In this document: piece by piece, positions 44,801 to 47,261 of the stretch
How the letters are laid out: each line of letters opens with the position of its first letter
How positions within the stretch are numbered: the stretch's first letter is position 1
From: Rhizaria sp. SCN 62-66
Taxonomy: Eukaryota
DNA length: 47,512 nt
Reading direction: 5' to 3'
Assembly: GCA_001724265.1 (NCBI GenBank)
Contig: MEDY01000227.1
Coordinates: forward strand, 1 to 47,512
Notes under the pieces: generated by a model
The model's input: only the letters and a program-made list of their open reading frames with translations
Database searches by the model: none
What the model was told of the DNA's origin: nothing
Program-made: the position numbers and the translations under genes

Positions 44801-47261
44801 GGCGACTGGTACACCCATGCGTGTCACTGCTGTTGCTGCTGCTGCGGCTGCTGGGGAGGGCGACGCGGTCCCCAGGGCGGCCCGCGGTGCGGAACAGGTG
44901 CAGCAGGTCGGAGAACTGGCCGTGGATGTCGCCGACCAACACCACGGGGCATTCGTCCACGTCCAGCTCGGCGTCGGCGTCGGCGTCGGAGTCATCGTCA
45001 GTATCGGCGGCATCAGCGGTGTCGAATGCAGCGCCAGCAGCAGGAGCAGCAGCAGGAGCGTTTGTGCTGTCAGTGATGGGAGTCGTTGCCGTCTCAGTCA
45101 TAGTCTCAGTCGTAGTTGCAGACGCAGTGACGGGAGCAGTGGTGAGAGAGCTAGAGCTAGGGCTAGCGAGAGAGCTGGGGCTAGAGAGAGAGCGAGGACT
45201 AGAGATGCTCGTATTGCAACTCGCCAAGTCAGGATCGTTGGCATCAGCATGGTCCTTAGCAGCGACTGCAGCCTCCATATGGACAGCAGCCTCAATCTAG
45301 CAGAGATCGGTCATGTTTGCAGTGTTGCTGCAGACGCAGTCCGCACACTCGTTCTCAGCCTCAGCCTCAGTTTCGGCATCAGTCTCGGCATCAGTCTCGG
45401 ATTCGTATTCGGACTCCGAGTCGCCAGTATAGGCATCGTACGCAGTCGCAGTTTCAGACTCGGACTCAGACTCGGACTCGGACTCGGACTCGGAGTCGGA
45501 GCCGCTTAGGGCACAGTCACAGGCTAACTGTGTCTGCGTCTGCTGCTGCAGCTGCCCACAGTCGCTATCAACCATCGGCGCACCGGCCCCGGCACCAGCA
45601 GTGTCAACATCGGCGTTAGCCGCGCTGGGAGCACCAGCGTCAGCGCCAGCGCCAGCGCCAGTGGCGGCGGCGGCGGCGGCGGCGGCGGTGTCACCCTATT
45701 TGCGCCCCAGGCCACGGAGGCTGGCGCAAGTGCTACGGTGGCGGTGACCGTGACCGTGATTGTTATTATTATCAGCGCGGCTATTCTACGTGAGAGCGAT
45801 GGCTGCAGCAGGCGTATTCGCAGTACTTAGATCCGCGTCCACGTCAGCACTTACACACGCTGCCAGCGCGGGCACCGGCGCTCTCGACCGCGCTCTAGAA
45901 CTTAAACCGGCGCGTACCCCACCCGAGCGCTTCGACGCCCTCCTGCGCTTCCCCTGCGCCGTGCGCGCGCTGCGAGAACCCGTGCCGCGGAGAGGGACTG
46001 TGAGCACCGTGGGTTCCGCCTCGAGCGCCGCGCGCAGCCGCTTGGCCAGCGCGCAGCAGACCCAGGCCGGCAGCGGAACACCGCGCCAGGCATGGGCCAG
46101 CCAGAAGTCGACGTCCAGGAACCCGTCAGCCGCGCTCTCGCCGAGGTCGTTGCCACTGGTTGTCGAGGCAGGGTCGGCACACTCAGAGCTCTCGGCCGCT
46201 GCTGCTGCTGCTGCAGGACGGGTGTGGCTCGTGGTGCCGTCGTCGTCTGCCATCAGGAGACGCACGCCGTTGCCACTGGCACTCGCACTGCCAACGACAG
46301 CTGCCTTGGCCTAGGCCGAGGCGGCGGCCGGGACCGTGGCGATCGCGACGGCGCGGGTGGCGGCCAGCGCGGCCTGTGACAGAGACTGCGCCGGGTCGCC
46401 CAGCGGCCGCGCGGCCAGGAGGCGGGCAAAGCGCGGCGGCAGCGGCACCAGGGCCTGCTCGCTCCGGGCGGCCGCGGCGGCGGCGGCGGCGCTTTCGGTC
46501 GCCGCGGTCACAGGCGCAGGCGCAGGGGCAGCCGCAGGGGCAGGGGCAGCAGGGGCAGTCGCAGGGACAGCAAGGGGAGTGGCGGCGTCTGAGTGGGCGC
46601 CAGCAGTGACCGCGTCAGTCGCGTCGGCCTCACTGTGAACCTCAGTCATACTCCTCGCGACGCCACTGTTCTCATGGCCGTTGCTGCTGCTGCTGCTGCT
46701 GCTGTTGTCAATGCTGTCAATGCTGTTGTCGACGGCGGCGATGATCGCGCGCGCCAGCGAGGGCGGGCAGGGCACTCCCAGCAGCGCGGGCAGCGCGCGG
46801 GCCAGCCACACGGGCGCCAACACGGGACCGTGGACGCCACGCGTACCCTCACGAATACCCTCACGGGTGCGCGCAGCGGGGCGAGTGCGGTGAGTCCGGG
46901 AGCTCGCGGCACTCCTCGCGTTATTGATGATGATGTTGCTAGTGGCGTCAGAGATGGGGGGCCGGCTAGACTAATGCCGAGCAGTGCTCTCGAACGGGGG
47001 CAGCGCAGGCGTCGCCGCAGCAGCGCTCGCAGTACCGTCGGCCGCAGACGCGGCCACAGCTTCCGCCGCAGCAGCCGCCGTCTCAGTCCCAGGTCGCGAC
47101 TGCGGCTGCGAAGGCTGCGGCGACTGAGATAACGAGGGTTCGAACGCAGAGGCGCCCGCAAAGGCGGCCGAGGCGGCGGCGGCGGTCGCGGCGGTCGCGG
47201 CGGCCACGGAGGAAGCGGCTTCGGGGGCCGCGGCGGCGGGGAAGAGGGGCGGCGACGGCAT
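40671..47261 (-). CDS. Giant PPP-family Ser/Thr protein phosphatase (PP2A/PP4/PP6-like core), 2196 codons if the 5 in-frame TAG are read as sense
   Basis: Catalytic motifs GDIHGQ, GDFVDRG, LRGNHE, HGGISP, DVLWSDP, RGAG, RAHQ and TVWSAPNYC all lie in 40671..45278. Track ORFs 45297..45575, 45786..46265, 46311..46823 and 46971..47261 are in the same frame. I translated the gaps by hand and found only TAG (45297, 45696, 45786, 46311, 46971). The PPP N-terminal helices (LDVDFWL...PLPAW...L...LEAEPTVLTV) sit at ~45990-46120. The frame is closed upstream by TGA 47271-47273 and ends TAA. The family call is secure; the 5' extent is less so. Confidence 0.82.
45455..45500 (-). repeat. Hexanucleotide tandem repeat (TCCGAG/TCTGAG)n encoding SESESE within the phosphatase insertion
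   Basis: Plus strand reads cagactcggactcagactcggactcggactcggactcggagtcgga, in frame with the phosphatase between TAG 45696 and TAG 45297. Confidence 0.85.

Follow-up and report, generated by a model that had tools for sequence, protein, structure and literature searches.

In-frame TAG codons between the N-terminal helices and the catalytic core of a PPP-family phosphatase gene, and a candidate 558-nt phase-0 intron

The 47,512-nt contig MEDY01000227.1 of Rhizaria sp. SCN 62-66 (assembly GCA_001724265.1), the whole of which is called the window here and supplies all coordinates, carries on its minus strand a gene for a divergent Ser/Thr phosphatase of the PPP family in which the N-terminal helices are separated from the catalytic core by in-frame TAG codons. 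Three such codons, at 45786, 45696 and 45297, had been noted in the original prediction; their coordinates are correct, and two further TAGs were found upstream in the same frame. The best reading of the locus is that it represents one functional gene in an organism using the standard code. The three downstream TAGs are tentatively explained, with confidence somewhat below even, by an in-frame, coding-like, phase-0 intron of 558 nt. That explanation has to be weighed against decoding or editing of UAG in particular genes, decay of the 5' part of the gene, and a gene split into two polypeptides.

The minus-strand frame is open from 47270 to a TAA at 40673-40671, and its internal stops consist of five TAGs, with no TGA and no TAA. 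From its first ATG (47259..47261, minus strand, context acaaagATGc), which is also the first ATG of the minus strand in the entire window, to the TAA the frame comprises 2196 codons (40671..47261, minus strand). At 47261, lower-GC DNA that is dense in stops in all frames gives way to GC-rich, coding-like DNA. The TAGs, numbered in the direction of reading and all on the minus strand, are located at 46971..46973 (TAG 1), 46311..46313 (TAG 2), 45786..45788 (TAG 3), 45696..45698 (TAG 4) and 45297..45299 (TAG 5). All five fall within the first 655 of the 2196 codons (P=0.0024 for all in the first 30% of the frame) and in non-conserved low-complexity sequence, with none at a conserved residue. The standard-code open reading frame (ORF) occupies 40671-45296 (1541 codons), and the first ATG after the last TAG (45276..45278, minus strand) opens a 1535-codon ORF; this ATG has C at -3 and is preceded by 11 ATGs and by ORFs of 96, 112, 155 and 92 codons. 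The 155-residue ORF, P0122, extends from an ATG at 46251..46253 (minus strand), the start codon under the standard-code model, to the TAG at 45788, and has been called by public annotation, with identical sequence, on six contigs.

The identity of the product is evident from its catalytic core. It matches the Pfam Metallophos family (PF00149) in three stretches, scoring 72.9 bits where the cutoff is 21.5 (E 6.2e-20), and the core (43491..44966, minus strand) contains GDIHG, GDFVDRG, RGNHE, VHGG, RGAG, AHQ and SAPNYC. All PPP metal- and phosphate-binding motifs are present, with 25 invariant columns in a 42-row alignment that includes the window's protein. The core is broken by three stop-free low-complexity inserts (~44870-44736, 44530-44091 and 43958-43782) and is followed by ~940 further low-complexity residues. 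Matches to solved structures in the PDB begin at LDVDECPVVLVGDIHGQ and range from ~1e-43 to 1e-50 (PP2B 6e-50, PP1 9e-44, PP2A 3e-43), the PP2B value being inflated by one chain that was matched twice (chain residues 170-325 and 399-555); the PP1, PP2A and PP2B structures score alike, so that no subfamily stands out. Among named proteins, SIT4, PP-X and PP2A account for most of the best matches (35-41% identity), and P0125 and P0250, the nearest relatives, are environmental proteins. Several of the core searches, namely those of named proteins, of protein representatives and of metagenome contigs as well as the 42-row alignment, used a query ending at 43560 and lacking the last 24 core residues. 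With it, no ortholog of the same architecture was found in 1.84 billion representatives (13,151 matches at E<=0.001), the top match, P0123, being a duplicated PP2A, and the five loci matched among metagenome contigs were 33-59% identical, none of them closely related to the phosphatase locus. A shorter or spliced form of the 5' part was likewise not found in the protein collection, where the locus's own 155-residue ORF was the one match among 8000 candidates scored.

The helices expected at the start of the PPP fold are encoded far upstream of this core. The segment containing the N-terminal helices and the first strand (45993..46118, minus strand, WLAHAWRGVPL...EAEPTVLTV) encodes the peptide LDVDFWLAHAWRGVPLPAWVCCALAKRLRAALEAEPTVLTVP (LDVDFWLAHAW…EAEPTVLTVP) and is followed, in the same frame and after three TAGs, by PVVLVGDIHG at 44948-44919; the gap of about 1 kb reported earlier between the helices and PVxxxGDIHG is borne out by these positions. 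When the N-termini of relatives were compared with every 80-residue six-frame piece of the window (4728 pieces), this segment ranked first for all four, that is, for P0125 (of 3922 scoring pieces, E 0.0063), P0250 (of 4510, E 0.0023), P0128 (of 4296, E 1.3) and P0226 (of 4105, E 0.41). In the reverse direction, when 269 PPP proteins were searched with the segment, it matched P0250 (E 0.0011) and P0125 (E 0.004), in each case at the N-terminus. P0125 starts MESWLGRAWKGHPL…LLLQEPNVVELKPPIVIVGDIHG, resembling the helix segment, and the motif WLxxAWxGxPL agrees with a distant relative at 8 of 11 positions. Since the segment ranks first in four six-frame searches and the reverse search matches as well, real PPP N-terminal helices do lie upstream of the three TAGs. 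A generic hidden Markov model (HMM) of PP2A/PP1 N-termini built from 21 sequences was unable to distinguish the segment, which scored -0.7 bits and ranked about 276th among the 4728 pieces. The resemblance to PPP helices that had been proposed from the sequence thus rests on the four closer relatives and is missed by the generic model, and HMM alignment of the two halves, which had been suggested as a check, succeeded for the core and failed for the N-terminal half. MAFFT, too, aligned the relatives' helices with low-complexity sequence adjoining the core instead of with the upstream helices.

The third-position G+C content (GC3) of the helix segment, 0.83-0.85, is at the level of the structured core, and the segment ends E-P-T-V-L-T-V, the first-strand pattern of relatives. 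Because the upstream piece ends in that pattern, the insert sits in the turn before P-V-V-L-V-G-D; it spans ~1 kb between the first two strands and would amount to 343 residues if translated. A start at 45278 would lose the helices, in keeping with the earlier argument that an intact enzyme needs the TAGs either removed or decoded. A trial junction restoring exact PPP spacing, ACG|GTGCTC (46008) to GCCGAG|CTG (44966), gained merely 4.3 bits and was not special, with 0.5% of 13,524 random joins scoring as high and 283 positions scanned; it was dropped, its donor scoring -3.0 and its acceptor being GAG.

In this organism TAG does not serve generally as a sense codon. It was looked for in eight other stretches of the window that are confidently coding: the giant PIP5K ORF, a cation-efflux protein, an unknown gene of 1887 codons, DBP10, a ThiF-type enzyme, UTP7, RNase PH exon 2, and the 3' 1541 codons of the phosphatase gene itself. 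Together they contain 12,605 codons with 337 CAG and no TAG, compared with five TAG and 14 CAG in the 655 phosphatase codons from ATG 47261 to the last TAG (Fisher p=2.5e-7 for TAG per CAG and 2.9e-7 for TAG per codon). CTG/TTG, the only other synonymous pair differing by C or T in the first position, carries 0-21% T in those stretches, so a silent choice between TAG and CAG would have left dozens of TAGs. Uniform reassignment is rejected on the absence of TAG from these 12,605 codons, and with it the idea that UAG decoding is a property of the organism's code. Nine genes of the window end in TAA (four) or TGA (five) and none in TAG, which has a probability of 0.04-0.23 at a normal TAG share of 15-30%; resting on nine genes, this count is suggestive at most. 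A tRNA scan found no tRNA gene in the window, and an Rfam scan of the window gave nothing at gathering score, only two chance-level matches at E up to 1.

With the standard code in force, the favored explanation is that the organism makes a divergent PPP phosphatase swollen, like its other proteins, by low-complexity inserts at surface loops. The ~1-kb stretch between the first strand, ending at 45993, and the second, PVVLVGDIHG at 44948, would be one such insert, part of which would no longer be translated. A phase-0 intron of 558 nt would run from GTAAGT at 45854 to the in-frame TAG at 45299-45297, and its excision would remove three TAGs and keep the frame. Translation would then start at ATG 46253, or farther upstream given other small introns, and the upstream TAGs would lie in the leader. 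The candidate intron (45297..45854, minus strand, GTAAGT...CTCTGCTAG) corresponds to 186 codons, is made of coding-like tri- and hexanucleotide repeats, and has GT…AG borders with a consensus donor and a YAG acceptor. By generic weights, GTAAGT 45854 is the best donor between 47300 and 44900, at 6.6 bits compared with 3.3 for the runner-up. It lies in phase 0, 3' of the helices and 66 nt upstream of TAG 3, and only ~0.025 donor-like hexamers (GTRAGT/GTGCGT) are expected in phase 0 within the 205-nt interval. Of the 28 phase-0 acceptors downstream of this donor, the highest scores belong to the three TAGs: 2.5 for 45786, equal to the acceptor of a putative intron in the RNase PH gene of the same window, 1.5 for 45297, and 0.5 for 45696, the last a poor acceptor owing to a purine-rich tract upstream. 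TAG 3 could by itself close a 69-nt phase-0 intron from the same donor, and only the 558-nt version removes TAGs 3, 4 and 5. When gene models were enumerated with ATG 46253 as the start, the single 558-nt intron was the top simple model. Between ~46010 and 45200, in and just upstream of the candidate intron, coding scores drop into the bottom 1-9% of coding windows, an Ala/Gly run excepted, and three stops per 186 codons is about the expectation for unconstrained sequence of the same composition.

It may be mentioned beside this model that GTGCGT at 46265 (minus strand), the hexamer that also forms the putative RNase PH donor, is in phase 0 and lies 12 nt upstream of ATG 46253, and that a strong acceptor, CCACACCCGTCCTGCAG, is found 55 nt beyond it. 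If this pair were used, ATG 46253 would be intronic, the frame would be shifted, and another upstream exon would be needed.

Near-identical contigs from four sequencing runs (X1-X4) in two studies, of wastewater and activated sludge, give sparse cover of the locus; bins without contig cover are uninformative, and contigs drop rare variants. TAG 1 is kept in an X1 contig (46765-47100, 0 differences) and in an X3 contig from a poly-A RNA library (46862-47103), both of them colinear with the window, and TAG 2 is kept in X1, X2 and X4 contigs. Because the X3 poly-A RNA contig runs colinear across it, TAG 1 is probably exonic. An X4 contig covering 44757-45439 represents a closely related strain with three substitutions and a 12-nt deletion. 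It has CAG in place of TAG at 45299 (plus-strand 45299 A>G), the sole strain difference seen at a TAG; both triplets are valid YAG acceptors, and the change would be equally silent if TAG were read as Gln. The 12 nt absent from this strain lie at 45091 (minus strand), inside a 12-nt tandem unit (ACTGAGAC…), an in-frame slippage variant just upstream of the core.

Several observations weigh against the 558-nt intron. Searching for junction reads at 45854/45297, 45854/45696 or 45854/45786 had been recommended, and on assembled RNA and DNA contigs no GT-AG junction at these or any other pair was seen among the 15 joints listed out of 34; the listed joints have short sides of 18-29 letters at CAG/GCC repeats and are taken as repeat artefacts. 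The X3 poly-A RNA contig passes colinear through TAG 1, and the X4 contig crosses the proposed acceptor without interruption, its library kind not being on record, although the study includes poly-A RNA libraries. The splice-site weights are generic values not trained on this organism, and donor-like hexamers (GTRAGT/GTGCGT) occur 14 times in bona fide exons. Gene models that start at ATG 47261 and have as many as three introns all failed the thresholds, by a frame test that was loosely written. The interior of the candidate intron scores -7 to +42 in 40-codon windows, compared with -35 to -70 for intergenic DNA. Its repeats, of lengths divisible by three, translate to HGHGH, SESESE and acidic dipeptides, poly-A and QQQTQTQ, echoing bona fide parts of the protein as the original prediction had said of the insert, and its composition is unlike that of the CT-rich 109-nt intron proposed for RNase PH. 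Two TAGs stay behind in ~1 kb that scores as normal coding DNA starting at ATG 47261, and ATG 46253 would be preceded by long ORFs of 96 and 112 codons. That none of the nine genes ends in TAG also counts on this side. The model of GTAAGT 45854, TAG 45297 and ATG 46253, put forward earlier as a standard-code alternative, holds in its coordinates, phase, 558-nt length and rank as the best-scoring simple model, and no junction for it was seen among the contig joints listed; the reservation attached to it, that the intron and ~1 kb upstream look like coding sequence and that two TAGs are left over, is upheld by coding scores in the same frame.

In a second explanation, considered doubtful, UAG is translated in this gene by restorative RNA editing, a conditional suppressor tRNA or efficient programmed readthrough, giving ~2196 residues from AUG 47261. 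It would account for one frame running from the strand's first ATG with coding-like codon usage throughout, including the surroundings of TAG 2 (77th-86th percentile among bona fide coding windows), and for TAG being the sole interrupting codon. It would also fit the colinearity of the X3 RNA contig across TAG 1 and of X4 contigs, of unrecorded library kind, across TAGs 2 and 5, the TAG/CAG polymorphism, silent if TAG means Gln, and, at P ~0.04-0.23, the lack of TAG among nine gene ends. A second TAG-bearing ORF of the window (16415-17905, plus strand) is likewise free of frameshifts and of stops other than its four in-frame TAGs, and precedents exist in restorative A-to-I editing in fungi (PMC10776026, PMC11156358) and in UAG-only nuclear reassignments (PMC5304391, PMC11687900). 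Against general decoding stands the absence of TAG from 12,605 codons elsewhere, and against decoding in this gene the crowding of the five TAGs into the first 655 of 2196 codons with none at a conserved residue, the lack of a tRNA gene within the window, and the in-phase GTAAGT, which would have to be a coincidence of ~2.5%. Editing in particular is disfavored by the position of the A, found in a hairpin loop (stem of at least three pairs) for 3 of 9 TAGs, compared with 23% of 119 control TAGs, with the fungal context not seen; by the strain variant at 45299, CAG where A-to-I restoration would predict TGG; and by RNA contigs over TAG 1 that still read TAG, contigs being prone to drop rare variants. 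The TAGs of the second ORF, moreover, may reflect C-to-T decay, its TTG/(CTG+TTG) ratio being 0.60. The narrower proposal that UAG is read or repaired only in particular genes, namely the phosphatase (five) and the Crinkler/RHS-like P-loop gene (four), with ordinary genes avoiding TAG, is accordingly regarded as unlikely.

Decay of the 5' third fits the data poorly and is judged quite improbable. On this account that region would be a relic, and the protein would be made from ATG 45278 without the helices, by an internal promoter or reinitiation, or the allele would be dead. In its favor, the 1535-codon ORF from ATG 45278 is uninterrupted and includes the entire catalytic core, another strain has CAG in place of one TAG, and in this GC3-rich codon usage 59-68% of one-step nonsense changes lead to TAG, giving a probability of 0.07-0.15 for five of five. 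Nonsense changes make up 1.5-1.9% of possible substitutions, however, and five of them imply ~15% neutral divergence, yet frameshifts, TGA and TAA are all absent from the 655 codons. Codon usage scores as normal from 47261 to 46010 (7th-96th percentile of 1081 leave-one-out coding windows). The TAG-containing frame beats the other minus-strand frames throughout and is the best of six in most 60-codon windows, a plus-strand frame equalling or beating it in 4 of 27, all between 46100 and 45561. C-to-T drift is not apparent, with TTG at 1 of 22 CTG/TTG codons (P=0.011 if decay resembled the 5 of 19 at CAG). The WLxxAWxGxPL motif is still recognizable at 8 of 11 positions with helix GC3 at 0.83-0.85, in a dead gene the five stops would not all be confined to the first 30% of the frame (P=0.0024), and ATG 45278 lies behind 11 upstream ATGs with C at -3. 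Far less probable still is a split gene, in which the 155-residue ORF (46253 to TAG 45788) and the core ORF from 45278 would be two assembling polypeptides: the identity of P0122 on six public contigs would suit it, but the two ORFs share a reading frame and the DNA separating them is coding-like, eukaryotic ribosomes are unlikely to translate a second cistron preceded by many ATGs, and no split-form relative was found among the proteins searched.

The second TAG-bearing ORF (16415..17905, plus strand, ~496 codons) has TAGs at 16580 and 16583, in tandem, and at 17345 and 17447, and ends in TGA. It contains a Walker A motif (GPPGIGKT) of P-loop proteins with a weak Pfam nSTAND3 match, and resembles Crinkler/RHS families in the atlas at scores of 0.84-0.90, which serve as leads only. 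The tandem TAGs occur within a coiled-coil-like stretch (…LEVQLRLFT-TAG-TAG-IAELLQ…), and the ORF lies in lower-GC DNA between two convergent genes, with TTG/(CTG+TTG) at 0.60. Crinkler and RHS families are prone to pseudogenes. The ORF may be a pseudogene of recent origin or else another gene that tolerates TAG; as it would belong to a multi-copy family, its decay is a fair alternative. The TAG pairs 46313/17345, 45788/16580 and 45299/16583 share 7-8-letter contexts (CCTAGGCC, TCACGTAG and TAGATTG) between the phosphatase and the second ORF; the comparison was made post hoc, and the chance of such sharing over 20 pairs is put very roughly at 1-2%.

That the organism has spliceosomal introns near 5' ends is suggested by its RNase PH gene (an exosome subunit), which lacks a usable in-frame ATG unless a 109-nt intron (32189..32297, plus strand, GTGCGT…CTGAC…CTATAG) is removed. 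There is no in-frame ATG before the domain unless ATG 32147 is joined across this putative intron, which would leave a first exon of 14 codons; its acceptor appears as an in-frame TAG. A further likely acceptor, TACTAAC…TTCTTATAG (…TTATAG), is present in the RNase PH leader at ~31950-31997 (plus strand). The RNase PH introns are the only ones proposed in the 47.5 kb besides the phosphatase candidate. Elsewhere in the window, an ORF at 1-14934 (plus strand) is truncated by the start of the window and still counts at least 4977 codons; it is stop-free, has a PIP5K domain around residue 3450 and is enlarged by low-complexity stretches. Genes of 1887, 1299 and 1189 codons are likewise very long and apparently intron-free. 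GC3 is 0.85-0.97 in the conserved protein segments and 0.5-0.7 in low-complexity inserts of the same genes.

If the intron explanation is true, a low-complexity coding stretch would have turned into an in-frame intron inside a conserved enzyme fold, in an intron-poor and unsampled eukaryote. Gene finders that halt at TAG would split the phosphatase gene, as public annotation does with its 155-residue ORF. Should the TAGs instead be read or edited, the result would be a gene-restricted tolerance of UAG that is undescribed for protists and bears on how stop-codon reassignments begin, and UAG decoding or restorative editing restricted to certain genes would then lie outside the filamentous ascomycetes.

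Compared with known phosphatases, the locus shares with the PP2A, PP4, PP6/SIT4 and PPG1 types, PP1 and PP2B being more distant, the PPP motifs, the Metallophos match and the helices leading into E-P-x-V-x-x-V. It differs from PPP phosphatases in a core split by four low-complexity inserts, the first of which holds the three TAGs, and in its ~940 extra residues. Lineages with UAG-only reassignment include a rhizarian, the fornicate Iotanema and phyllopharyngean ciliates, and in them TAG is spread through genes generally. The window resembles such lineages in its in-frame TAGs, in the retention of TAA and TGA as stops and in having no gene that ends in TAG, and differs in the absence of TAG from 12,605 codons of its other genes. 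UAG-only reassignments of nuclear codes have been described (PMC5304391, PMC11687900). Filamentous ascomycetes offer a parallel of another kind, restorative A-to-I editing of premature UAG (PMC10776026, PMC11156358); as there, a few otherwise intact genes carry in-frame UAG, and the second ORF has UAG in tandem. The present locus differs in showing no hairpin-loop preference, and its strain variant is CAG rather than TGG. Tandem UAG-UAG is known from ascomycete editing in PUK1. The host, moreover, is not placed among ascomycetes: its UTP7 is at most 63% identical to environmental proteins and only ~50% identical to any named species, chytrids, Capsaspora and others among them.

The closest likeness for the favored intron explanation is with introns of length divisible by three that contain in-frame stops, a known pattern (PMC2911113, PMC5014332), and with exitrons or intronised coding sequence (PMC4484396), with which the candidate shares GT…AG borders, phase 0 and a length divisible by three. 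Its coding-like interior would be that of an exitron, although exitrons are by definition stop-free and the 558-nt candidate holds three TAGs. The candidate is also five times the length of the one 109-nt intron proposed in the window and differs in composition from that CT-rich sequence. Its in-frame stops would flag unspliced RNA, as in such introns of length divisible by three.

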